From UHGV virus genome UHGV-0217160: a stretch of DNA of 15,042 nucleotides. The stretch is one strand, 5' to 3'. A program made the translations under genes and the position numbers. Under the pieces are notes generated by a model. It saw nothing but the letters and a program-made list of their open reading frames with translations, was not told where the DNA came from and did not search any database. Shown here piece by piece: positions 5,303-15,042 of the stretch (the stretch's first letter is position 1; each line of letters begins with the position of its first letter). This DNA is from a virus.

Positions 5303-5324
5303 GGCCGCCTGTGCGGCTTTTTTT
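5303..5324 (+). terminator. D-E intergenic GC hairpin followed by a T7 run (terminator/attenuator-like)
   Basis: GGCCGC-CTGT-GCGGC stem-loop at 5303-5317 followed by TTTTTTT (5318-5324), between the D stop and the E start. Confidence 0.4.
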
Positions 5325-5337
5325 ACGGGATTTTTTT

Positions 5338-5613
5338 ATGTCGATGTACACAACCGCCCAGCTGCTGGCGGCAAATGAGCAGAAATTTAAGTTTGATCCG
5401 CTGTTTCTGCGTCTCTTTTTCCGTGAGAGCTATCCCTTCACTACGGAGAAAGTCTATCTCTCACAAATTCCGGGACTGGTAAACATGGCGCTGTACGTTT
5501 CGCCGATTGTTTCCGGTGAGGTTATCCGTTCCCGTGGCGGCTCCACCTCTGAATTTACGCCGGGATATGTCAAACCCAAGCACTTAGCATGGCTTTCTGA
5601 GGCTTTCGTGTAG
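5338..5613 (+). pseudogene. E: Major capsid protein E (lambda-type), truncated after codon 82 and fused to 9 unrelated codons
   Basis: MSMYTTAQLLAANEQKFKFDPLFLRLFFRESYPFTTEKVYLSQIPGLVNMALYVSPIVSGEVIRSRGGSTSEFTPGYVKPKH matches the lambda E N-terminus, then LAWLSEAFV-stop. Full-length E is ~341 aa, so about 75% of the gene is missing. The break coincides with the start of the island. Confidence 0.85.
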
Positions 5614-5745
5614 TTGCTGGTTTTTACACTTAATCTTTTGATAATAAAGAATAAGTTTATCTGGCGCTTTCACTGAATTTTCCTCGTTATCTGTGTGTTG
5701 CAATCATCTCTGTATTGCAGCTTGTATTGCTTTTTGGGGCTAAAA

Positions 5746-6981
5746 ATGGCTGGCGAGAACAAACTGAGCGACAAAGCGCTTAAAGGATATCTGGGGAAAC
5801 CCAGAGAAAAGCAGATCACCATTGCTGATGGAAAGGGGCTTTCTATTCGTGTGAGTACCAAGGGGGCTGTGAGCTTTGTTTTCTTCTACAGGTTAGCAGG
5901 TGGCCGGGCTGCTCCGGTCTGGCTAACGTTGGGTAAATATCCTGATATGTCACTCAAACAGGCAAGGGAAAAGCGCGACGAGTGCCGTGGTTGGTTGGCT
6001 GACAAACGTGATCCGCGTATCCAGATTAAGATTCAGGCTGAAGAACGCTTAAAGCCGGTCACAGTGGAGGATGCACTAAATTACTGGTATGAAAATTACT
6101 GTAAGGTGCGTCGTAAAACTCATGCTGTAACGCTTGGCAGATTTCGAAAGCATATCTTTCCCTATATCGGTCATTTGCCCGTAAATGACACTCACCTATA
6201 TGAATGGCTGGACTGTTTTGACCGAATTAAACGTAATGCACCAGTTATGGCGGCGTATGTTTTTTCTGACACTAAATTAGCTCTTCGTTTTTGTCGGGTA
6301 CGCCAGTACGCGACGTGTGATGCTTTAAAGGATTTGCGCATGAGTGATGTGGGGCAGATTGCAGGTAAGCGGGATCGGGTTCTGGATGAAGCCGAACTCG
6401 GCCAGCTCTGGAAGGCAATTTTTGTCGAGCCTGATTTAAAACTAATGTCTGAATACACGCGAAAAATGTTTGTGCTTTGTACAGTATTTGGATGTCGAAT
6501 GAGTGAAGCCCGATTATCAGAATGGAGCGAATGGGATCTCGAAAGTTGGGTTTGGACTGTACCAAAAGATCACTCAAAAACTGGTGTTGAAATCGTCAGA
6601 CCAGTACCTGAAATTCTACGACAGTGGGTAACGGATGTTCACGAAGAGACAAAACATACTGGTTATGTGCTGGGAAGTCTGCGAATTAGAGAAAGCGTAA
6701 GCAAGATTGGGGGGAAAATCGGTAAACGTTTGGGCCATGAAAAACAATGGTCACTACACGACCTTAGAAGAACGCTATCTACTCATCTAAGTGATCTCGG
6801 TGTTGAATTTTATGTAGTAGAACAACTGTTAGGCCATGCGCTACCTGGCGTGGCGGGTGTTTATAACCGGAGTAAGTTTATGGCTAAAAAACTGGATGCT
6901 CTGGAACTCTGGACTACATATCTCAATAGCATCGCAGGTGCTGATTCAAAAGTGACAATCCTCAAACAAAAGGCTGGTTAA
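5746..6981 (+). CDS. int: Tyrosine integrase, P4-type (N-terminal arm-binding domain plus C-terminal catalytic domain)
   Basis: MAGENKLSDKALKGYLGKPREKQITIADGKGLSIRVSTKGAVSFVFFYRLAGG... is a typical P4-family integrase N-terminus. The C-terminal region contains HDLRRT...LGH...GVYNRS, consistent with the R-H-R-Y catalytic set. The ORF track start at 5695 is a 5' extension. Confidence 0.9.
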   Translation: MAGENKLSDKALKGYLGKPREKQITIADGKGLSIRVSTKGAVSFVFFYRLAGGRAAPVWLTLGKYPDMSLKQAREKRDECRGWLADKRDPRIQIKIQAEERLKPVTVEDALNYWYENYCKVRRKTHAVTLGRFRKHIFPYIGHLPVNDTHLYEWLDCFDRIKRNAPVMAAYVFSDTKLALRFCRVRQYATCDALKDLRMSDVGQIAGKRDRVLDEAELGQLWKAIFVEPDLKLMSEYTRKMFVLCTVFGCRMSEARLSEWSEWDLESWVWTVPKDHSKTGVEIVRPVPEILRQWVTDVHEETKHTGYVLGSLRIRESVSKIGGKIGKRLGHEKQWSLHDLRRTLSTHLSDLGVEFYVVEQLLGHALPGVAGVYNRSKFMAKKLDALELWTTYLNSIAGADSKVTILKQKAG

Positions 6982-6982
6982 C

Positions 6983-7207
6983 ATGAAAAAAATGGCAATT
7001 GTTGATAAAAAGGGTCTGGAGTACAATCCTAACATCGATCGTATGATCCGTGAGAAAGAATGTCGGGAGCTAACCACTCTTGCGAACAGCACACGCTGGA
7101 AGCTGGAGAAGGAAGGAAAATTTCCTAAGCGGATCAAGATTGGTGCTACAGCTGTGGCGTATCGCCTCTCTGAAATTCAGGCATGGATTAAAGGGGATTG
7201 GAAGTAA
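6983..7207 (+). CDS. alpA: AlpA-family (Phage_AlpA / MerR-like HTH) transcriptional regulator
   Basis: 74 aa; RELTTLANSTRWKLEKEGKFPKRIKIGATAVAYRLSEIQAWI matches the AlpA helix-turn-helix-wing signature. It lies 1 nt after the int stop, the conserved int-alpA arrangement of P4-like elements and Gram-negative PICIs. Confidence 0.85.
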   Translation: MKKMAIVDKKGLEYNPNIDRMIREKECRELTTLANSTRWKLEKEGKFPKRIKIGATAVAYRLSEIQAWIKGDWK

Positions 7208-7239
7208 TTTTAATTATTTTTTATACGGTAGGAATAAGA

Positions 7240-7995
7240 GTGGACTATATAAGCGAAGTTGTTTTGGATAAAGTTGTGAATGAACTTGCAACAAGGGCTA
7301 AAAATGCAAGGAGAGCAAGGGCTCTAATAGGTATGACTATAATTTCTGTGGCCGTAATTCTTTCTGCGTTTATTTCCTATAGACTAACTGATGACTTTTC
7401 ATTAAAAGGGTTTAGAAGTGGTTTGTTCGCTTCTACAATTTCAAATGGATTCAATGATACATCGGGAATACGTGAAGCGTTTAATCTGGAACTATTAAAT
7501 GTATTTCCAGAAACATCGAAGAGTGATTCGATTGCCAAGTTGTTTTCTCAATTAGATGGAGGAACTCCTCAGTCTAGTGGTGAAAATGAAGTATTAAAAA
7601 AAATTACTAAGGAAGAGAAAGACGAAGCTCTTTCTTATGTAAGTAAATTGGTTGATTACTATGTCAAAGTTGCCGCAGCTGAAAATGGACGTCCGGTTAA
7701 CAAAACAGATAATACATATAGTAGTTTGATTAGTTCATTAGCTCTTTCAGCAGGTGCTGTCGGATTTGTATTATATATCTTACAGATAGCAGTTAGTTTT
7801 GTGCGTTATTACTCTAGACTGGCTGAGTTATATGACTCTCAACGGACTGCGTTAATTGCATCTGACGGCAATGTCGAAACGGCAAAAATACTTATGGATA
7901 TATTATCAAATGATCATGTCGGTTTGGGAAAAGAACCAACTACTTTATATGGAAAAGCATTAGATGTAATTGGCGAGGTTGCAAAGTCAAAATAA
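7240..7995 (+). CDS. Hypothetical membrane protein with two predicted transmembrane helices (AT-rich cargo gene)
   Basis: Open frame 7198-7995. Likely start is GTG 7240 preceded by TAGGA (a TTG at 7198 is the alternative). Hydrophobic segments MTIISVAVILSAFISY and LISSLALSAGAVGFVLYILQIAVSFV flank a ~115-aa hydrophilic loop. Hand-counted sample lines are about 35% G+C against about 60% in the lambda-type genes. No recognisable family. Confidence 0.6.
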   Translation: MDYISEVVLDKVVNELATRAKNARRARALIGMTIISVAVILSAFISYRLTDDFSLKGFRSGLFASTISNGFNDTSGIREAFNLELLNVFPETSKSDSIAKLFSQLDGGTPQSSGENEVLKKITKEEKDEALSYVSKLVDYYVKVAAAENGRPVNKTDNTYSSLISSLALSAGAVGFVLYILQIAVSFVRYYSRLAELYDSQRTALIASDGNVETAKILMDILSNDHVGLGKEPTTLYGKALDVIGEVAKSK

Positions 7996-8019
7996 TACTT
8001 GCGAAGGGGGGCGTTTTTG

Positions 8020-8220
8020 ATGTCCCTCCTGTATATTTATCGAGAGGAAAAATATAATTTATTTGGTTGTGGTTTTACTTTTAAATATATGGTGGACCAT
8101 TATTGCTCAAGGTTTTTATACATGGCTTGTAACTTAAAGACTTTCTGTCAACCCCGTACTTTGAAATCTGCACGGTCGCATTCCGTAATTGTTCTTTGTC
8201 GTTCTTGCGAGGTGTGGTGA
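8020..8220 (+). CDS. Possible small Cys-rich ORF (66 aa) downstream of the 2-TM gene
   Basis: ATG at 8020 preceded by AAGGGGGG (spacing 8). Product MSLLYIYREEKYNLFGCGFTFKYMVDHYCSRFLYMACNLKTFCQPRTLKSARSHSVIVLCRSCEVW has 6 Cys. It lies in AT-rich DNA where chance ORFs are easy, so low confidence. Confidence 0.2.
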   Translation: MSLLYIYREEKYNLFGCGFTFKYMVDHYCSRFLYMACNLKTFCQPRTLKSARSHSVIVLCRSCEVW

Positions 8221-8268
8221 TACATCTCTCATGTCAGTTGTTTTTTGACCGTGGGAACATAAAACAAA

Positions 8269-8287
8269 GGCGACAAGAATAGTCGCC
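8269..8287 (-). terminator. Candidate intrinsic terminator for the leftward RHH-SWIM operon
   Basis: GGCGAC-aagaata-GTCGCC stem-loop. On the minus strand it is followed by a U-rich run (complement of 8255-8268 AACATAAAACAAAG), about 70 nt beyond the SWIM gene stop. Confidence 0.35.
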
Positions 8288-8356
8288 AGTGGCATAACAC
8301 TAAACTTAAGCGTATTCAGAATACCAAGTTGTAGGCTGATGGAAAATAGAATTAGT

Positions 8357-8713
8357 TCAATATTTAGGTGGTTCTACAAGAGCGTTTATCATTGCTCTCA
8401 AATTATCTCGGACACTTATCCAAGTCTGTTCTGCTCGTTCTAATTCATCAGTGTACAGCTTTAATGTTTTATCTATGCCATATGTGGCTATTAAATTTAT
8501 AGCTTCTTGTAACTTTTCGGGGTTATTCCTTCTTGGGGGCGTAAATATACCTCGGATTTTTCCGGTGATTAAAGCTTTACGGTGTCTGCATAGAATACCT
8601 TTACTTCCAGCAGGACAATTACAAGTCATGATTAGCGAGCCAGAATCGTTTGATACAGTGACTATGTATACATCCAAACTACTGCTACTTGTTGCGAAGA
8701 ATTCGTATTTCAT
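8357..8713 (-). CDS. SWIM-type zinc-finger protein (hypothetical)
   Basis: 118 aa; contains C-N-C-PAGSKGIL-C-R-H (CxC-x8-CxH), the SWIM zinc-finger signature. Strong SD (AAGGAG, 8 nt upstream on the minus strand). Sits 27 nt downstream of the RHH gene in the same orientation. Confidence 0.6.
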   Translation of the reverse strand: MKYEFFATSSSSLDVYIVTVSNDSGSLIMTCNCPAGSKGILCRHRKALITGKIRGIFTPPRRNNPEKLQEAINLIATYGIDKTLKLYTDELERAEQTWISVRDNLRAMINALVEPPKY

Positions 8714-8740
8714 GTTTTAGCTCCTTGAATTCAGGTATTC

Positions 8741-8935
8741 TTATCCTTTTGGTTCAATTCCGCGACGTAGCAGCTCTTTGCGCCCTAATTCTTTAAGCCA
8801 GTTGGCTAGGCTTACCCCATCGTTACTGGCTTCGTTATCAAACTGCTCCTTCAATTCAGGAACTATGCGCATATGGAACGGTGGGGCCTTTCCTGTGCCT
8901 TTTGGTTTTTTATCGCGCTTAATAATCGTTGACAT
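8741..8935 (-). CDS. Arc/Mnt-like ribbon-helix-helix DNA-binding protein (candidate repressor)
   Basis: 64 aa; PPFHMRIVPELKEQF followed by ASNDGVSLANWLKELGRKEL parallels the Arc repressor beta-strand and helix A (PQFNLRWPREVLDLV...ENGRSVNSEIYQRV). Its start codon abuts the palindromic operators. Confidence 0.65.
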   Translation of the reverse strand: MSTIIKRDKKPKGTGKAPPFHMRIVPELKEQFDNEASNDGVSLANWLKELGRKELLRRGIEPKG

Positions 8936-8991
8936 GTGTACACCTATAGCGTTATGTTTTTATTCGATAGGTGTACACCTTAACACGTGTG
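8934..8991. promoter_or_regulatory. Divergent control region with two copies of a 12-bp palindromic operator (core GTGTACAC) plus an ACACGTGT palindrome
   Basis: ATGTGTACACCT at 8934-8945 (one mismatch from perfect) and the perfect palindrome AGGTGTACACCT at 8969-8980, centres 35 bp apart; ACACGTGT at 8984-8991. Located between the leftward RHH gene and the rightward small-ORF/primase operon. Confidence 0.5.
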
Positions 8992-9074
8992 CATTTAAAA
9001 ACGCAACGCCCCGCAGTGCGGGAACACATGCAGGGCGTCTAACCACCAACGATAGCAACAGTATCGAGGTAGCT

Positions 9075-9278
9075 ATGAGAAATCATACCACACACCCGCA
9101 AGGGCGGGACTCGCACAACCTGAATAAATACATCTGGCGTTTTATCGCCCTGAGCACCGCACAACCACGCGTAATACACATCGAGGCCGCCAGCGAACAG
9201 GAAGCCCGACTGCAATCCCCAACTGGCTACGTGATGATATTCGCCGCCCGTATTCGTCAGGAGGTGTGCCATGAATGA
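9075..9278 (+). CDS. Hypothetical protein (68 aa), first gene of the primase operon
   Basis: ATG 9075 with GAGG 6 nt upstream. The stop overlaps the next start (ATGAATGA). The track's 8778-9278 ORF is a 5' over-extension running antisense through the RHH gene. Confidence 0.45.
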   Translation: MRNHTTHPQGRDSHNLNKYIWRFIALSTAQPRVIHIEAASEQEARLQSPTGYVMIFAARIRQEVCHE

Positions 9279-9495
9279 TCTTTATTTTAAAGTGCTGACA
9301 CATGCTGAAAACGCGCTCGTTTGTGGCAAAAATATGCGAGAAATCTTATCAACCTGGCTTGATGGGACAACAAATGCGGAACACGATGAACGGGATGCTA
9401 ATTTAGCTGGAGCGTTAATTACGTTACTTGATCCTGTCATCAAAGAGCTGGATGAAGCTATAAAAATACACGACCAGAGCTATACCGGAGAATAA
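9271..9495 (+). CDS. Hypothetical protein (74 aa)
   Basis: ATG 9271 with AGGAGG 8 nt upstream; translationally coupled to both neighbours. No family recognised. Confidence 0.55.
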   Translation: MNDLYFKVLTHAENALVCGKNMREILSTWLDGTTNAEHDERDANLAGALITLLDPVIKELDEAIKIHDQSYTGE

Positions 9496-9497
9496 AA

Positions 9498-9785
9498 ATG
9501 AAAAATAAATTTTCTGGCTTTATTGCCAGCGGTCAAACTCATTCAAAAATCAGCCTTGGGGATATTTTCAAAGATAGCTATGGCTATCGGGTAAAGATTA
9601 TTTCGGTTGATGATCGCCGTGTCTCTTATTTGCGTGATGGTTATGATTTTGAATGTGTTATGCCGCGTCAGCAGTTCGAAAGAGATTTCATTCTGGTAAA
9701 AAATTGCAAGACAGATAATCAGAGGCGTTCCGCAGGCTATATCCGCAAAATTCGGGCAATGTTAGTTGCCGGAGGTAACAAATGA
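9498..9785 (+). CDS. Hypothetical protein (95 aa)
   Basis: ATG 9498 with GGAGA upstream; stop overlaps the primase start (ATGA). No family recognised. Confidence 0.55.
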   Translation: MKNKFSGFIASGQTHSKISLGDIFKDSYGYRVKIISVDDRRVSYLRDGYDFECVMPRQQFERDFILVKNCKTDNQRRSAGYIRKIRAMLVAGGNK

Positions 9786-11602
9786 AACGTGCTCCGAACT
9801 TAAAATACCAACCGCGCGACAAAATGACAGAAGTCATCATTTTTGCTGGCAGTGATGCCTGGAGCCATGCAAAAGAATGGAATGAATGGGCGGGTAAGCA
9901 TATTGCAGCAGATGATACACCACCAGTAATTCTGGGTACGGAACAACTGGAAAACCTGGATGATATGCAAATTATCGATGAAGGCCGTCATTATGTGCGT
10001 GTTTATCGTGCCGGAAAGATCGCAGAGAAAAATCTGACGAAGGTTGCGACATTACTTGCTATTGCAGGCGTAAAGGAAGCACGTTGTTACCGTAGCTTTG
10101 TTGATCGAGAGCCTGAAAACTGGACTCCGCGCCTTGTCGGCCTAAAAGCTGAAGCGGAGCATGGGGAAAGTCTGGTGATTGAACTGCCAGTGAAGAAGGC
10201 TGAGCGCAAAAATGACGAGCGTGCTTCATCTTTGGCGTTGAATCAGATGGGGGCCAGCCAGCGCGGTGAAGTTCTCCTTGCACATTACGGCGGCGAACTG
10301 GCAATCAATGCCGACTCTGACACCGTTCATCATTACAACGGCGTTGTATGGGAGCCGGTTCAGGATAAAGAGTTACAGCGTGCTATGGCGCAGATTTTCA
10401 TTGATGCGGAGATCAGCTATTCGCAGAACGCCATTAAATCGGCGGTAGATACCATGAAGTTAAGTTTGCCTGTAATGGGGAATACAGCCCGTAACCTGAT
10501 TGGATTCAGTAACGGGGTATTTGATACCAGAACTGGTAATTTTCGGGAGCATAACAAAAACGACTGGTTGTTAATTGCCAGTGAATTACCTTTCAGCCCA
10601 CCAGCAGAGGGGGAAACGCTGGCAACACATGCGCCGAATTTCTGGAAGTGGTTGCGCCGTTCGGTGGCTGAGAATGACCGCAAGGCAGATCGCGTACTGG
10701 CGGCATTATTCATGGTGCTGGCGAACCGGTACGACTGGCAGTTATTCATTGAGGTAACAGGGCCGGGGGGAAGTGGTAAAAGTGTGATGGCGGAGATTTG
10801 CACCATGCTGGCGGGTAAGGCTAATACAGTATCAGCAAGCATGAAGGCGCTGGAAGATGCAAGGGAACGTGCGTTAGTGGTTGGCTTTTCGCTGATTATC
10901 ATGCCGGATATGACCCGCTACGCTGGTGATGGGGCAGGGATTAAGGCCATTACAGGCGGTGACAAGGTGGCAATTGACCCGAAACACAAAGCCCCCTATT
11001 CAACGCGTATTCCGGCAGTAGTGCTGGCGGTTAACAATAACGCCATGTCATTCAGTGACCGCAGCGGGGGGATCTCACGTCGTCGGGTGATATTCAATTT
11101 TTCGGAAGTTGTACCGGAGAACGAACGCGATTCGATGCTGGCGGAAAAAATAGAAGGTGAGCTGGCGGTAGTGATTCGTCATCTGCTTACACGGTTTGCT
11201 GATCAGGACGAAGCCAGACGCCTGTTATATGAGCAGCAGAAATCTGAAGAAGCACTGGCGATAAAGCGAGAGGGGGATTCGCTGGTGGACTTCTGCGGCT
11301 ATCTCATGGCATCGGTAATGTGTGATGGCCTGTTAGTGGGTAATGCTGAAATTGTGCCATTCAGCCCACGCAGGTATCTCTATCATGCCTATCTGGCTTA
11401 TATGAGGGCACATGGGTTTGGTAAACCTGTAACACTGACGCGCTTCGGTAAAGATATGCCGGGGGCAATGGCGGAATATGGCAGGGAGTATATGAAACGG
11501 AAAACGAAGCACGGTTTGCGTTCAAACGTGACACTGACGGAGGAATCAGAAGACTGGATGCCATCATGTGTATCGGTCACTAATGACGATAGCAAAAATT
11601 AA
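9782..11602 (+). CDS. Phage/plasmid primase-helicase, P4-family (D5/SF3-type NTPase domain)
   Basis: 606 aa; Walker A GPGGSGKSV and a Walker-B-like hydrophobic stretch ending in D (LIIMPDM). Size and position (after int/alpA, immediately before the iteron ori) match the pri/rep gene of P4-like elements and PICIs. Confidence 0.85.
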   Translation: MKRAPNLKYQPRDKMTEVIIFAGSDAWSHAKEWNEWAGKHIAADDTPPVILGTEQLENLDDMQIIDEGRHYVRVYRAGKIAEKNLTKVATLLAIAGVKEARCYRSFVDREPENWTPRLVGLKAEAEHGESLVIELPVKKAERKNDERASSLALNQMGASQRGEVLLAHYGGELAINADSDTVHHYNGVVWEPVQDKELQRAMAQIFIDAEISYSQNAIKSAVDTMKLSLPVMGNTARNLIGFSNGVFDTRTGNFREHNKNDWLLIASELPFSPPAEGETLATHAPNFWKWLRRSVAENDRKADRVLAALFMVLANRYDWQLFIEVTGPGGSGKSVMAEICTMLAGKANTVSASMKALEDARERALVVGFSLIIMPDMTRYAGDGAGIKAITGGDKVAIDPKHKAPYSTRIPAVVLAVNNNAMSFSDRSGGISRRRVIFNFSEVVPENERDSMLAEKIEGELAVVIRHLLTRFADQDEARRLLYEQQKSEEALAIKREGDSLVDFCGYLMASVMCDGLLVGNAEIVPFSPRRYLYHAYLAYMRAHGFGKPVTLTRFGKDMPGAMAEYGREYMKRKTKHGLRSNVTLTEESEDWMPSCVSVTNDDSKN

Positions 11603-11615
11603 ACTTATGGAATAA

Positions 11616-11847
11616 CTGTTCACCACTGTTCACCCTGTCATAAATATCTTTTATATCAGTATATTATAGGGTGAACAGTTATTTATGAACTGTTCACCAA
11701 ACTATTCACTGTTCACCTTTTTGATTGTTTATTGAGCTTCAAGGGTGAACAGTGGTGAACAGTTGGTGAATAGTTTTTGTGAAACTGTTCACCCATTAAC
11801 ATTATGAATTAAAAGAGAAAATATCAAAAGGTGAACAGGTGAAGGGT
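11616..11847. repeat. Iteron-type replication origin: 9 perfect and at least 1 degenerate copy of GGTGAACAG in both orientations, with an AT-rich unwinding block
   Basis: CTGTTCACC at 11616, 11626, 11690, 11709, 11785; GGTGAACAG at 11670, 11744, 11754, 11830; GGTGAATAG at 11765. Tandem copies have 10-11 bp periodicity. AT-rich stretch at 11635-11669. Directly downstream of the primase gene. Confidence 0.8.
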
Positions 11848-11889
11848 TAAAACGCAAAAATTTTAATTTACTGCTGTGAGATAAAGCCT

Positions 11890-12135
11890 ATGACAGCGAA
11901 GCACACAAAAAAATCACAATCGCACGCCCTTGATTTGACGGAACACTGGTTAAGGGTGTCGATAAAAATCATCGACCGCAACGCCGGGGAAGGTTACGCG
12001 AAAGCACATCCCGAACTGATTAGCGCATTCATGACAACGGCGGCTGCAAACTTTGCCACTCTGACCGAACGGGAGATTGCTGAAGCGGAGGAAGTGACAA
12101 CAATCAATATTAAGTCCGGAGAGCAGGCAGCATGA
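11890..12135 (+). CDS. Hypothetical protein (81 aa)
   Basis: ATG 11890; stop overlaps the start of the SSB-like gene (ATGA). No family recognised. Confidence 0.5.
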   Translation: MTAKHTKKSQSHALDLTEHWLRVSIKIIDRNAGEGYAKAHPELISAFMTTAAANFATLTEREIAEAEEVTTINIKSGEQAA

Positions 12136-12581
12136 CGGCGCAAATATCAGTTTACGGGCGGTTGGTGGACGACCCGCAGACAAAACAGACCAGCAAGGGC
12201 ACCCCCATGACGCTGGCGCGTATGGCGGTATCACTGCCCTGCAGTCAGTCGGATGACGGTCAGGCGACGATGTGGTTATCTGTCCTGGCGTTTGGCAGAC
12301 AAGCCGACGCGCTGGCAAAGCATCACAAAGGCGAACTCCTGAGCGTGGCGGGTAACATGCAGATGAGCCAGTGGACTGGACAGAACGGCGAAACGCGGCA
12401 GGGCTGGCAGGTTATCGCAGACAGCGTAATCAGTGCGCGATCGGTGCGACCGGGCGGCAATAAAGGCCAACAGGGGCAGGCTACTGACGCACTGAACAGA
12501 GCAAAACAACAGGCAGATCAGCAAGGAAGCCAGCCACCAGTGGGAGATAATGAGCAATGGGGAGATGATATCCCGTTTTAA
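12132..12581 (+). CDS. Single-stranded DNA-binding protein-like (OB fold with SSB-type acidic C-terminal tip)
   Basis: 149 aa; N-terminal region resembles the SSB OB fold (ISVYGRLVDDPQ...MWLSVLAFGRQADALAKHHKGELLSVAGNMQMSQWTGQNGETRQGWQV), followed by a Gly/Gln-rich linker and the C-terminus DDIPF, as in E. coli SSB. Confidence 0.7.
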   Translation: MTAQISVYGRLVDDPQTKQTSKGTPMTLARMAVSLPCSQSDDGQATMWLSVLAFGRQADALAKHHKGELLSVAGNMQMSQWTGQNGETRQGWQVIADSVISARSVRPGGNKGQQGQATDALNRAKQQADQQGSQPPVGDNEQWGDDIPF

Positions 12582-12600
12582 ATATTGCCAATAAAAAAAG

Positions 12601-12624
12601 CCGGAAAAAATAAATTTTCCGGCA
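12601..12624. terminator. Perfect 9-bp-stem hairpin (GCCGGAAAA / TTTTCCGGC) between the replication module and the capsid operon
   Basis: Stem 12601-12609 pairs with 12616-12624, loop 6 nt. The A-run is 5' of the stem on the plus strand and there is no 3' U tract, so terminator function for the rightward transcript is uncertain. Confidence 0.3.
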
Positions 12625-12797
12625 TGCTACATAAATCCCGACCAAAGGGAGTGAAGATATTAACACTAATTGTCCGCACTGAAGTTGTCACCCCAAAACT
12701 TTATACAACATTGCACTCGGTTGCATGTGTTCGCATGACAAATATCGGTGATAGCATATATCCACAATTATTTTTAATGAATGCAAAGAGGATGCGT

Positions 12798-13838
12798 ATG
12801 GTTGATTTATATTCGCCTACTCAGCTTGTACAGGTGGTTAATGCTGTAGATGTACAAAAACAACTAAATGCGTTGTTTACCAGTTTGTTTTTTACTCGCT
12901 CGGTAATGTTTGAATCGCGCGATATTATTCTTGATACAATCGACGATCCAAATATCCCAATTGCAGCATTTTGTTCTCCTATGGTGGGTAGTAAAGTTTC
13001 ACGTGACGAAGGGTACGAATCAAAAACAATTCGTCCAGGCTATATGAAGCCGAAAAGCAGCATTGATCCAAATAAGTTAGCTGTGCGCCCTGCTGGTGTA
13101 TCACCTGAGCAATACAATGCTTTTGGGGCGCGTAATATTAAAGTTAAACAGGCGATTGTAAATCAAGCTAAAGCTATTCGTGCACGTATTGAATGGCTTG
13201 CCGTTCAGGCAATCACAACGGGGAAAAATATCATTGAGGGCGATGGTATTGAACGTTATGAGCTGGACTGGAATATTAAACCACAAAATATCATCACTCA
13301 GTCTGGCGGTGCTGAGTGGTCAGGTAAGGATAAAGAAACTTTTGATCCAAATGATGATATTGAGAGCTACGCAGAATTTAGTGAGGGCGTCACTAATATC
13401 ATCATTATGGGCGGTAATGTATGGAAGAAATACCGTTCATTCAGAGCGATAAAAGAGGCTCTGGATACCCGTCGTGGTTCTAATTCCGAACTGGAAACGG
13501 CCCTTAAAGACCTTGGTGATTCGGTGAGTTTTAAAGGATATATGGGCGATGTTGCGATTGTTGTTTACAGCGGGCGTTATACCGACGAGGACGGAACTGA
13601 AAAACATTTCCTTGATCCTGATTTGATGGTGCTTGGCAATACGGCTCTTCAGGGGATTGTCGCCTATGGCGGTATTCAGGATCCGGAGCTAATCCGAATG
13701 GGGCTGACTAAAGCCGAACTTGCACCGAAAAACTATATTGTGCCTGGTGATCCTGCTATTGAATATGTGCAGACACATTCAGCACCACAGCCAATACCGG
13801 CCCGCATCAATCGTTTTGTTACCGTTCGCATTGGCTAA
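12798..13838 (+). CDS. Major capsid protein, lambda gpE-family (HK97-fold), diverged island-encoded paralog
   Basis: 346 aa from ATG 12798 (AAGAGGA upstream), which aligns with the lambda E start. Alignable end to end with lambda E: MVDLYSPTQLV / MSMYTTAQLL; GYMKPK / GYVKPK; ITQSGGAEWSGKDKETFDPNDDIESYA / ITQSGGTEWSKRDKSTYDPTDDIEAYA; DTRRGSNSELETALKDLG identical over 14 of 18; GDVAIVVYSG identical. The track ORF from 12585 is a 5' over-extension through the hairpin. Confidence 0.88.
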   Translation: MVDLYSPTQLVQVVNAVDVQKQLNALFTSLFFTRSVMFESRDIILDTIDDPNIPIAAFCSPMVGSKVSRDEGYESKTIRPGYMKPKSSIDPNKLAVRPAGVSPEQYNAFGARNIKVKQAIVNQAKAIRARIEWLAVQAITTGKNIIEGDGIERYELDWNIKPQNIITQSGGAEWSGKDKETFDPNDDIESYAEFSEGVTNIIIMGGNVWKKYRSFRAIKEALDTRRGSNSELETALKDLGDSVSFKGYMGDVAIVVYSGRYTDEDGTEKHFLDPDLMVLGNTALQGIVAYGGIQDPELIRMGLTKAELAPKNYIVPGDPAIEYVQTHSAPQPIPARINRFVTVRIG

Positions 13839-13847
13839 GGGGGAGCA

Positions 13848-14189
13848 ATGGCTACTCATTACACTGAACTCATGGCTGGCACTGAAGCACTGGTGACTAC
13901 GCTGGGGATATTTTCAGCTAATAAAGGGGTAATTCCTGCATTTACGCCACTGATGCAGGAAGATGCAACAGGTGCACTGGTAGTATGGGATGGTTCGAGC
14001 GTAGGTAAAGCGGTTTATGTTTCCGCTGTACAAATCGACACCGCGAAAAAAACACAGGCTCAGGTCTATAAGACAGGTGTCTTAAATGTTGATGCTCTGA
14101 ACTGGCCTGAGTCTGTTAAAGAACTGTCAGTAAAGGTTGCAGCGTTTGTTGGCTCAGGTATTTCTGTTCAGCCGCTGGCTCGTGTGTAA
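13848..14189 (+). CDS. Head decoration protein, lambda gpD-family, diverged island-encoded paralog
   Basis: 113 aa. AFTPLMQEDATGALVVWDGSSVGKAV...VYKTGVLNVDALNWPE...AAFVGSGISV aligns with lambda [27 protein letters not shown]...[16 protein letters not shown]...[11 protein letters not shown]-rich SD AAGGGGGAG. Immediately downstream of the E-like gene, the same D/E pairing as lambda but in reverse order. Confidence 0.8.
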   Translation: MATHYTELMAGTEALVTTLGIFSANKGVIPAFTPLMQEDATGALVVWDGSSVGKAVYVSAVQIDTAKKTQAQVYKTGVLNVDALNWPESVKELSVKVAAFVGSGISVQPLARV

Positions 14190-14200
14190 AGGGGGATACA

Positions 14201-14584
14201 ATGCAGAATGATTACAATGACCTTAAGCCAATTGCCGAAATGATGTACCCGAATCAAGCTGTAGAGGAATTAAAAGCTATCGCTGACAAAATGTGTTTAA
14301 GCGAGCGCCTTGTTGATATGAATCAGGTGATGGAAATTACAACCCTGAGTCGTCGTACACTGCTAAACCTTGAGGCTAGTGGAGAGTTCCCGGAGCGTGT
14401 GCAGGTTACGGAAGGGCGTAAGGCCTGGTATTTAAGTGAAGTGATCGACTGGATAAATAATATTCCTCGCGCTTCTGAATATTGCCGCGTACCTGTCCCA
14501 AAAAAGCCAGATGCGGCGCTATGCCTCAAGATTGAGCGTGTACGCCGCAATGCACGGGATGGTCGCTATAAGCTGATTGGTTGA
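14201..14584 (+). CDS. AlpA/MerR-type winged-HTH DNA-binding protein encoded immediately upstream of cos (candidate packaging specificity or regulatory factor)
   Basis: 127 aa; MEITTLSRRTLLNLEASGEFPERVQVTEGRKAWYLSEVIDWI matches the AlpA HTH-wing pattern and parallels the Nu1 N-terminal HTH (LADIFGASIRTIQNWQEQGMPVLRGGGKGNEVLYDSAAVIKWY). SD AAAGGGGGA, like the D-like gene. Stop is 27 nt before cosQ-type sequence. Confidence 0.7.
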   Translation: MQNDYNDLKPIAEMMYPNQAVEELKAIADKMCLSERLVDMNQVMEITTLSRRTLLNLEASGEFPERVQVTEGRKAWYLSEVIDWINNIPRASEYCRVPVPKKPDAALCLKIERVRRNARDGRYKLIG

Positions 14585-14610
14585 TGAAATTAGGGCCCGC
14601 TCTGGCTGGC

Positions 14611-14810
14611 GGGTCCTTTCCGGCGATCCAGAACGTTACGGGGCGTCAGGCGCGCAGTTTTTCGCTATTTGTGAAAATTTTCCTGTTTAAGGCGTTTCCG
14701 TTCTTCTTCGCCGTAACTTAATGTTTTTATTAAAAACACCCCCTAAAAAGAAAGGAAACGACAGGTGCTAAAAACAGGCTTTTTGGCCTCTGTCGTTTCC
14801 TTTCTCTGGT
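14611..14810 (+). other. cos: cos packaging site, lambda-type: cosQ, cosN (variant 12-nt cohesive-end sequence) and cosB (R3, IHF-site region, R2, R1)
   Basis: GGGTCCTTTCCGG...GTTACG (cosQ side), then by homology the nick site between 14640 and 14641 with predicted overhang GGGCGTCAGGCG (lambda: GGGCGGCGACCT, as recalled). R3 CGTTTCCGTTCT at 14693-14704, R2 GAAAGGAAACGACA at 14749-14762, R1 TGTCGTTTCCTTTCTCT at 14791-14807. Confidence 0.8.
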
Positions 14811-14829
14811 TTTGTCCGTGGAATGAACA

Positions 14830-15042
14830 ATGGAAGCCAACAAAAAGCAGCTGGCTGACATTTTCGGTGCGAGTATCCGTACCATTCAGAACTAGCAGGA
14901 GCAGGGAATGCCCGTTCTGCGAGGCGGTGGCAAGGGTAATGAGGTGCTTTATGACTCTGCCGCCGTCATAAAATGGTATGCCGAAAGGGATGCTGAAATT
15001 GAGAACGAAAAGCTGCGCCGGGAGGTTGAAGAACTGCGGCAG
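14830..15042 (+). pseudogene. Nu1: Terminase small subunit Nu1-type, interrupted by an in-frame TAG at codon 22; 3'-partial at window end
   Basis: ATG 14830: MEANKKQLADIFGASIRTIQN, then TAG (14893-14895) where lambda Nu1 has Trp, then QEQGMPVLRGGGKGNEVLYDSAAVIKWYAERDAEIENEKLRREVEELRQ in the same frame to the window end. AGGAG at 14897-14901 precedes the in-frame ATG at 14908. Confidence 0.75.

Follow-up and report, generated by a model that had tools for sequence, protein, structure and literature searches.

An AlpA-family protein of a satellite capsid module, with a phased repeat array as its candidate operator

The stretch of DNA analyzed here (the window: 15,042 nucleotides of the virus genome UHGV-0217160) contains most of a helper-embedded phage-inducible chromosomal island (HE-PICI; PICI without the prefix for the wider class), a known type of phage satellite, inserted among the head genes of a lambdoid prophage. 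The gene at issue, which we call AlpA2 (positions 14201 to 14584, plus strand), is the third gene of the satellite's capsid module, after the genes for a major capsid protein (MCP) and a lambda D-like head decoration protein (D), and it is followed by the satellite's cohesive-end site, cos. Our results favor, tentatively and at somewhat below an even chance, a reading in which AlpA2 is a module-specific regulator of the AlpA family that would bind a phased direct-repeat array upstream of the MCP gene and control the satellite capsid operon. The original prediction for this gene, made from its sequence, was of a cos-recognition or packaging-redirection factor, with an excisionase or a late activator as the fallback. 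It is to the fallback that the evidence points, specifically to a late regulator of the capsid module and less so to an excisionase.

Conservation and fold of AlpA2

AlpA2 starts with ATG and encodes 127 amino acids. The window matches Escherichia coli chromosomes at 100% identity, and the protein is listed in RefSeq as WP_001178672.1, a "helix-turn-helix transcriptional regulator." The open reading frame (ORF) and the AlpA-type helix-turn-helix (HTH) core proposed for it are borne out by the ORF call and by two family matches. Pfam Phage_AlpA (PF05930) covers residues 36 to 85 (coding region 14306 to 14455, plus strand) over profile positions 2 to 51 of 51, with an E value of 7.5e-9 and a score of 35.8 bits (gathering cutoff, 21), and PHROG 2790 ("excisionase and transcriptional regulator") covers residues 11 to 109 (E = 3e-49). 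All full-length homologs carry the PF05930 match in precomputed annotation. Within this domain lies a near-invariant recognition helix, TTLSRRTLLNLE, and the homolog alignment shows TTLSRRTL(L/I)NLE to be identical in about 93 of 99 sequences.

By sequence, AlpA2 has a single relative in the PDB, the AlpA-family entry 8c3t, which was deposited under the name GIsul2 excisionase (E = 2e-9 for a single-sequence query and 1.5e-13 for a profile; 42% identity over 52 residues) and for which a literature search found no paper. Another candidate identity, that of a Pseudomonas aeruginosa AlpA-type antiterminator, was dropped, the PDB sequence searches having returned 8c3t alone.

Homologs of the same length occur in Escherichia, Citrobacter, Enterobacter, Salmonella, Klebsiella aerogenes, Pluralibacter, Trabulsiella, Kosakonia, Kluyvera, Superficieibacter, Cedecea, Buttiauxella, and Scandinavium. 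The median ratio of nonsynonymous to synonymous substitution rates (dN/dS) is 0.17 overall and falls to 0.05 in the HTH; the C-terminal extension has a median of 0.24 and the N-terminal one a median of 0.40. Because same-length homologs are found across these genera and dN/dS is low, we conclude that the gene and both extensions (residues 1 to 35 and 89 to 127) are real, constrained, and under purifying selection. The earlier description of a protein with N- and C-terminal extensions and two cysteines in its C-terminal part therefore stands. Those cysteines, C95 and C108, are nearly invariant, although at least one of them is substituted in the Buttiauxella, Scandinavium, and Cedecea homologs. 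Because the two are not both kept in these three genera, a cysteine-based metal site is unlikely, and we rejected it.

When 1.84 billion representatives were searched exhaustively with a profile, full-length relatives of AlpA2 were confined to one 50% cluster plus two outliers, all remaining matches covering the HTH core only. Among the INPHARED phage genomes there were weak matches confined to the HTH and no full-length relatives, NCBIfam contains no model for the protein, and a scan of GTDB genomes contributed just four more loci.

The AlphaFold2 model of AlpA2 is of low confidence (predicted local distance difference test score, pLDDT, of 65). It has helices at residues 40 to 47, 51 to 59, and 78 to 87 and a poorly resolved wing, and its overall layout is that of an N-terminal helical pair (about residues 8 to 32), an AlpA-type winged HTH (36 to 88), a proline-rich linker, and a basic C-terminal helix (about 105 to 119). 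A Foldseek search with this model ranked 8c3t first and BldC second, followed by MtaN and RdfS, with E values that were all weak; the DNA-binding domain of the small terminase protein Nu1 (1j9i) ranked 16th and the RppC-TerS structure (6hn7) ranked 19th (E = 0.9), both with E values near 1. The suggestion that AlpA2 belongs to the same fold class as Nu1 is thus correct at the general level of MerR-like winged-HTH proteins and does not extend to any closer relationship.

AlpA2 begins 11 nt after the stop codon of D. As originally noted, it shares a G-rich Shine-Dalgarno sequence, AGGGGGA, with the D-like gene, to which it is translationally linked.

A constant capsid module with a phased repeat array

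The order MCP (346 to 347 amino acids), D (112 to 113 amino acids), AlpA2 is kept in 12 of 12 loci, which represent at least eight named genera. (Comparison loci carry L labels; L001 is the locus in which the window's satellite continues, L011 is EcCICFT073 in strain CFT073, and L025 is the embedding prophage.) The module remains constant while the rest of the element varies in its integrase (407 to 479 amino acids), its integration site (capsid gene E, fis, or near rpoD/mug), its early regulator (Phage_AlpA or HTH_17), its primase type (D5_N or DUF927), and its post-cos genes. What is constant in all 12 loci is a unit made up of a terminator, two to four phased hexamers, an extended -10 element, MCP, D, and AlpA2.

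In the window, this unit opens with a GC hairpin and A-run (12600 to 12623) that lies between the replication genes and the capsid module, has equivalents in the other loci, and is called by the terminator scan as a minus-strand terminator. The phased direct-repeat array (12701 to 12736, plus strand), identified by a repeat scan and by its presence across loci, is the candidate operator of the module. It reads TTATAC-aaca-TTGCAC-tcgg-TTGCAT-gtgt-TcGCAT, with an exact 10-bp period. Every one of the 12 loci has an array of the pattern TT(A/G)(C/T/G)A(C/T), again with a 10-bp period, 55 to 95 bp 5' of the MCP start; three or four hexamers fit the pattern in most loci, and L002, L012, and L019 have a matching pair together with in-phase degenerate copies. 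The chance expectation for a triple is 0.013 per 15 kb, and where a triple occurs, it is unique in its locus. No further array was found in 37 kb comprising the satellite and the helper late region or in 36 kb comprising the helper early region and the adjoining chromosome, and a scan of the CFT073 helper region likewise found none.

Downstream of the array lies an extended -10-like element, TGaTAGCAT (12749 to 12757, plus strand; TGnTAnnAT in the other loci), which has no good -35 and is the predicted MCP-D-AlpA2 promoter. It was called solely because it is conserved in the cross-locus alignment, and its distance from the array varies among loci by about one helical turn. We infer that this element is the promoter of the operon. 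The two genes that precede AlpA2 lie on the plus strand: the satellite MCP (12798 to 13838, 346 amino acids) belongs to the lambda E family (PF03864, E = 2.6e-41), an assignment with which RefSeq agrees, and D (13848 to 14189, 113 amino acids) belongs to the lambda D family (PF02924, E = 4.5e-15). The ORF list gives the capsid gene as a 417-amino-acid, TTG-started ORF (12585 to 13838), and alignment and RefSeq set its conserved start at the ATG at 12798. With this start, there is room for the promoter and the array.

The constant pairing of gene and array suggests a regulated, functional unit. The fold and family of AlpA2 are ordinary, and the type of element that carries it has already been published; what appears to be undescribed is a distinct subfamily of extended AlpA-family proteins, obligately grouped with the capsid and decoration genes of satellites and paired with a conserved phased array. 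In the paper that describes HE-PICIs (Tommasini, Mageeney, and Williams 2023; PMC10111431), Phage_AlpA is assigned to the category "Integration," and neither the array nor another AlpA-family gene in the late zone is mentioned.

Proposed regulation of the satellite capsid operon

AlpA2 is the only DNA-binding protein that always accompanies the array; the early regulator swaps between AlpA and HTH_17 while the array stays TTGCAC. The recognition helix and the hexamers also vary together. All loci with the helix RRTL(L/I)NLE have TTGCAC/TTGCAT hexamers. In Cedecea, the helix is RGTLLNLE and the hexamers are TTGTAC; in Buttiauxella, RRTLLDME goes with TTATAC and TTAGAT; in L017, RRTILDME goes with a mixture of TATAC and TTGCAC; and in L019, RQTILDME goes with TTAGAC.

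In the mechanism that we propose, AlpA2 monomers would bind head to tail on the two to four hexamers at 12701 to 12736, one helical turn apart, immediately 5' of the -35 region of the extended -10 promoter and reaching into it. Bound AlpA2 would then control transcription of MCP, D, and AlpA2 itself. The most likely outcome would be activation with positive feedback late in helper growth, and an autorepressor seems less likely; activation is favored because of this geometry, the poor -35, and the precedent that the AlpA protein of PICIs activates its own promoter (PMC6092414). The conserved basic C-terminal helix and the N-terminal helices might serve in oligomerization or in contact with RNA polymerase. 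Both the identity of AlpA2 as the array binder and the sign of the regulation are what we infer from comparing sequences among loci.

Family precedent lends this reading support by analogy, in the form of PICI AlpA, the phased repeats of EcCICFT073, and the presence of BldC and excisionases among the nearest folds. The AlpA of EcCICFT073 and AlpA2 belong to the same Pfam family and come from the same kind of element; PICI AlpA is a small winged-HTH protein that activates a satellite promoter, in its case its own (PMC6092414), and in both systems phased direct repeats lie upstream of the promoter that is, or is predicted to be, regulated. AlpA2 differs in being about twice as long, with its conserved N- and C-terminal extensions, in its late-zone position, third in the capsid module and away from int, and in forming a narrow family of its own whose candidate site is TTGCAC-like, not AACAAC-like. 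In EcCICFT073, five phased (G/A)AACAAC repeats with a 10- to 11-bp period are located between int and alpA (L011 24185 to 24245) and are candidate AlpA or Int arm sites.

A second parallel is with P2 Cox, lambda Xis, and Streptomyces BldC, the last of which is also the second-ranked match in the fold search. The mode of binding proposed for AlpA2, several winged-HTH monomers on hexamers one helical turn apart, is theirs; winged-HTH proteins such as Xis, Cox, and BldC bind head to tail, and Cox activates a satellite late promoter. Unlike these proteins, AlpA2 is only predicted to bind in this way, and past the fold it has no detectable sequence homology to them.

Several points weigh against AlpA2 as the regulator acting at the array. 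The link between protein and array is their co-occurrence in one inherited module, which linkage alone could yield, and the covariation of helix and hexamer is limited to four lineages, which in general are the most diverged ones as well. A consensus sigma-70 scan of the window did not call the proposed promoter. The closest characterized relative, 8c3t, is an excisionase, the structural model is of low confidence (pLDDT, 65), and it is unusual for a regulator to be encoded last in the operon that it controls. Moreover, the array could be bound by a helper protein, since TTGCAC-n4-TTGCAy can also be read as TTGC-N6-TTGC.

This last point leads to a different account, in which the array is a sensor for a helper activator, for example a CII-like protein, and AlpA2 acts elsewhere, for instance by interfering with or reprogramming the helper or host in trans at their promoters. 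TTGC-N6-TTGC is the lambda CII site, which the TTGCAC-n4-TTGCAy stretch fits. In CII-dependent pRE, however, the -10 is found about 13 nt after the second TTGC, compared with a spacing of 15 to 27 nt here, and the arrays of Buttiauxella and L019 (TTATAC and TTAGAC) have no TTGC at all. The dependence of PICI gene expression on the helper (PMC6092414) and the existence of satellite regulators that act on helper genes, PLE CapR being one (cited in PMC10111431), would accord with such an arrangement. Nevertheless, no CII gene is annotated in this strain's embedding prophage, and scanning ~55 kb of the helper prophage and neighboring chromosome turned up no array. Taken together, these observations make a helper-sensing array an unlikely explanation.

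EcCICFT073 (L011 22931 to 33655) provides a comparison in which the capsid genes occur without the regulator proposed here. Its gene order is MCP (c1499), D (c1500), c1501, cos1, rppA (32660 to 33094), and its MCP-D segment is ~66% identical to the window's module at the DNA level, with neither AlpA2 nor the array, a joint absence that counts in favor of their pairing. The gene in the position of AlpA2, c1501 (L011 32084 to 32497), is unrelated to it. The c1501 product matches positions 495 to 567 of 583, the C-terminal, Nu3/scaffold-like part, of a head maturation protease PHROG, and the EcCICFT073 module may be one of capsid, decoration, and scaffold genes. In the published, tetA-marked version of the EcCICFT073 island, the marker was inserted in c1501.

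Excision as an alternative role

The same relationships that identify AlpA2 as an AlpA-family protein are compatible with a role as a late-expressed excisionase, or recombination directionality factor (RDF), that would bind the attP arms and, with the satellite integrase, time excision to the helper late phase. GIsul2 excisionase is the best match of AlpA2 in both sequence and fold, PHROG 2790 has excisionase in its name, and AlpA/Xis-type RDFs (P4 Vis, TorI, and RdfS) have the type of winged HTH that typically binds phased direct repeats. HE-PICI excision is a late event (PMC10111431), and the doubled TGTATTGCA motif in HE-PICI attP arms has an ATTGCA core in common with the array.

Unlike those RDFs, AlpA2 is not integrase adjacent. 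It lies 7.2 kb from int, and every locus has a separate alpA or HTH_17 gene beside int; in the window this is a 74-amino-acid alpA (6983 to 7207, plus strand; identified by Pfam and PHROG), which is 34% identical to AlpA2 over the HTH and would be the conventional AlpA activator or RDF. The recognition helix of AlpA2 is constant across unrelated integrases and att sites (capE, fis, and near rpoD/mug) and does not covary with them. The doubled attP motif repeats every 12 bp and occurs solely in HE-PICIs; the fis and other AlpA2-bearing satellites lack it, no matching sites were found in their att regions, and no array was found near att in any locus scanned. We therefore regard an excisionase function as improbable and continue to favor regulation of the capsid operon. 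The doubled motif itself is present at 5711 to 5730 in the window and at 20632 to 20651 in L001, and one TGTATTGCA copy ends 16 nt 5' of the integrase start codon.

Packaging and the cos region

The original prediction envisaged that AlpA2 binds the satellite cos, helper TerS, or both, and redirects packaging in the manner of the PICI protein Rpp, or that it is the DNA-recognizing component for a terminase with an HTH-less Nu1. The resemblance to Rpp (RppA, RppB, and RppC) is that of a small satellite protein encoded beside cos and belonging to the MerR-like winged-HTH fold class, which Nu1 shares (Fillol-Salom et al. 2019; PMC6739421). Rpp proteins have 139 to 154 amino acids, carry an N-terminal winged HTH (residues 1 to 64) that is ~25% identical to the DNA-binding domain of Nu1, and dimerize by C-terminal helices (PMC6739421; Murialdo and Feiss 2022, PMC9026076). 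Rpp is thus a homolog of the Nu1 domain, its HTH being N-terminal and its C-terminal part a coiled coil, whereas the HTH of AlpA2 is central and of the AlpA type.

Homology searches separated AlpA2 from both families. We rejected it as an Rpp homolog, with hhalign giving a probability of 0.2% for its family profile against RppA and the PDB sequence searches missing RppC, and as a Nu1-family TerS, with no match to PF07471, an hhalign probability of 0.2% against the helper TerS, and the wrong gene position. The Rpp gene takes the place of terS, on the downstream side of cos (PMC9026076). AlpA2 is upstream of cos, and in the window the Rpp/terS position, on the opposite side of cos, is held by a Nu1 pseudogene, which corrects the analogy with Rpp.

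The cos region argues in the same direction. The satellite cos (14611 to 14805, plus strand), delineated by comparison with the helper cos, EcCICFT073 cos1, and other satellites, consists of a cosQ-like block, GGGTCCTTTCCGG (14611 to 14623), 27 nt 3' of the AlpA2 stop codon; a cohesive-end position, GGGCGTCAGGCG (14641 to 14652); and a lambda-type cosB with R3, I1, R2, and R1 at ~14693 to 14805. An imperfect GC hairpin (GGGCCCGC...GCGGGTCC; 14593 to 14616, plus strand), recognized by reading the sequence, lies between the AlpA2 stop and cos and overlaps the cosQ-like block. Across the compared loci, nothing is conserved between the AlpA2 stop and cosQ, and the GC hairpins there are nonhomologous.

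Nine satellite backbones were compared on the cos side of AlpA2. In the window, the DNA 3' of AlpA2 has a lambda-type cosB and the Nu1 pseudogene, and in L006 it has a lambda-type cosB without Nu1. L002, L012, and L013 have a GGTGGTGG-type cosB and an intact Nu1-family gene of 168 to 180 amino acids, and L015 and L016 have a third cosB type. A factor that determines cosB specificity would be expected to covary with cosB, and the recognition helix of AlpA2 is constant over at least three cosB types, so a role in packaging recognition is not supported. Nor was a hexamer array found in any cos region scanned. The statement that AlpA2 is the last gene before cos applies to the window and most loci, a position that does favor a packaging role, but not to L015 and L016, in which a 131-amino-acid ORF separates AlpA2 from cos.

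The idea that AlpA2 stands in for the DNA-binding module of an HTH-less Nu1 rests on a nonsense allele. The lambda Nu1/nohA-like small terminase gene (14830 to 15042, plus strand; identified by sequence and RefSeq) has an in-frame TAG at 14893 to 14895, where TGG has become TAG at codon 22, and an in-frame ATG follows five codons further on. The 111-nt segment with this lesion is matched at 99% or more in ~60 complete E. coli genomes (at 95 to 99%, it is matched in ~4000 genomes, mostly by nohA/nohD of cryptic prophages). The MCP-D-AlpA2 module is present in ~395 complete E. coli genomes (~7%), and AlpA2 therefore cannot have evolved to compensate for the lesion; most AlpA2-bearing satellites have an intact Nu1-like gene or none.

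What keeps a packaging role alive is an oddity of this strain, in which the satellite's cosB is of the lambda type and its Nu1 is broken, while the helper has a cosB and a TerS of a different type, which we take to be phage-21-like. The helper cohesive end (L001 3407 to 3418) is GGGCGGCGACCT, identical to that of lambda and different from the GGGCGTCAGGCG of the satellite, and that of the relative L002 is GGGCGGAAGGCG. With homology, position, and covariation all against it, we consider it very unlikely that AlpA2 is a packaging factor of either kind.

Implications for satellite capsid genes

A capsid gene is present in 21 of 29 reference Gram-negative PICIs, often together with a decoration gene, and its phenotype is not known. 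Deletion of c1499 or c1500 in EcCICFT073 left transfer and interference unaltered (PMC6092414). The module described here, which occurs in many enterobacterial genera, is never without a DNA-binding protein of its own and a conserved phased array. The pair of AlpA2 and its array is thus a tractable entry to the unexplained function of PICI capsid genes.

It is possible to go further and propose that AlpA2 and the array form a self-contained cassette that makes the satellite capsid and decoration genes autonomously switched or, in more radical versions, that AlpA2 acts in trans on the helper or that its tails couple satellite DNA or terminase to satellite capsids. We think such extended proposals quite unlikely. 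If the cassette were autonomous, AlpA2 would offer a way, missing until now, to explain why Gram-negative PICIs have capsid genes, and if the tails did provide this coupling, they would constitute a route to packaging specificity distinct from that of Rpp.

The satellite and its embedding prophage

The window is neither a circular phage nor a single genome; it consists of lambdoid prophage head genes with an embedded satellite. The prophage genes are A, W, B, C, D, and a truncated E (5311 to 5613), the 3' part of which is found at L001 20731 to 21519. The satellite, of ~11 kb, is inserted in capsid gene E and spans 5614 to 15042 of the window, continuing to ~20730 in L001. Its assignment as an HE-PICI, a class delimited to 10 to 20 kb, is based on int and alpA, a primase gene with adjacent ori iterons, and a late zone with a capsid gene and cos, all within a co-oriented late gene of a prophage. 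The published class includes 11capE (PMC10111431), which shares with the window's element a co-oriented position inside a lambdoid capsid gene E, the int-alpA pair, a primase, its own capsid gene, cos, and the doubled TGTATTGCA. The two differ in that 11capE is described without terS, whereas the element in the window has a Nu1 pseudogene and other relatives have intact Nu1-like genes.

The gene order of the satellite is int, alpA, a hypothetical gene, SWIM and HicB genes on the minus strand, an Icd-like gene, DUF4222, and primase, followed by iterons (11600 to 11840), an 81-amino-acid gene, SSB, MCP, D, AlpA2, cos, and the Nu1 pseudogene. The iterons, dense direct and inverted copies of ACTGTTCACC just 3' of the primase gene, are likely the satellite's replication origin. 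The hypothetical gene (7198 to 7995, 265 amino acids) overlaps the end of alpA; it and the SWIM zinc-finger and HicB-like antitoxin genes (8357 to 8935, minus strand) lie in the satellite's variable zone. None of these three genes has an NCBIfam family assignment, and they could be cargo or defense genes. The integrase of the embedding prophage is annotated as frameshifted (L025 15000 to 16050), and this, together with the nonsense codon in the satellite Nu1, suggests that the helper-satellite composite is decaying in this strain.

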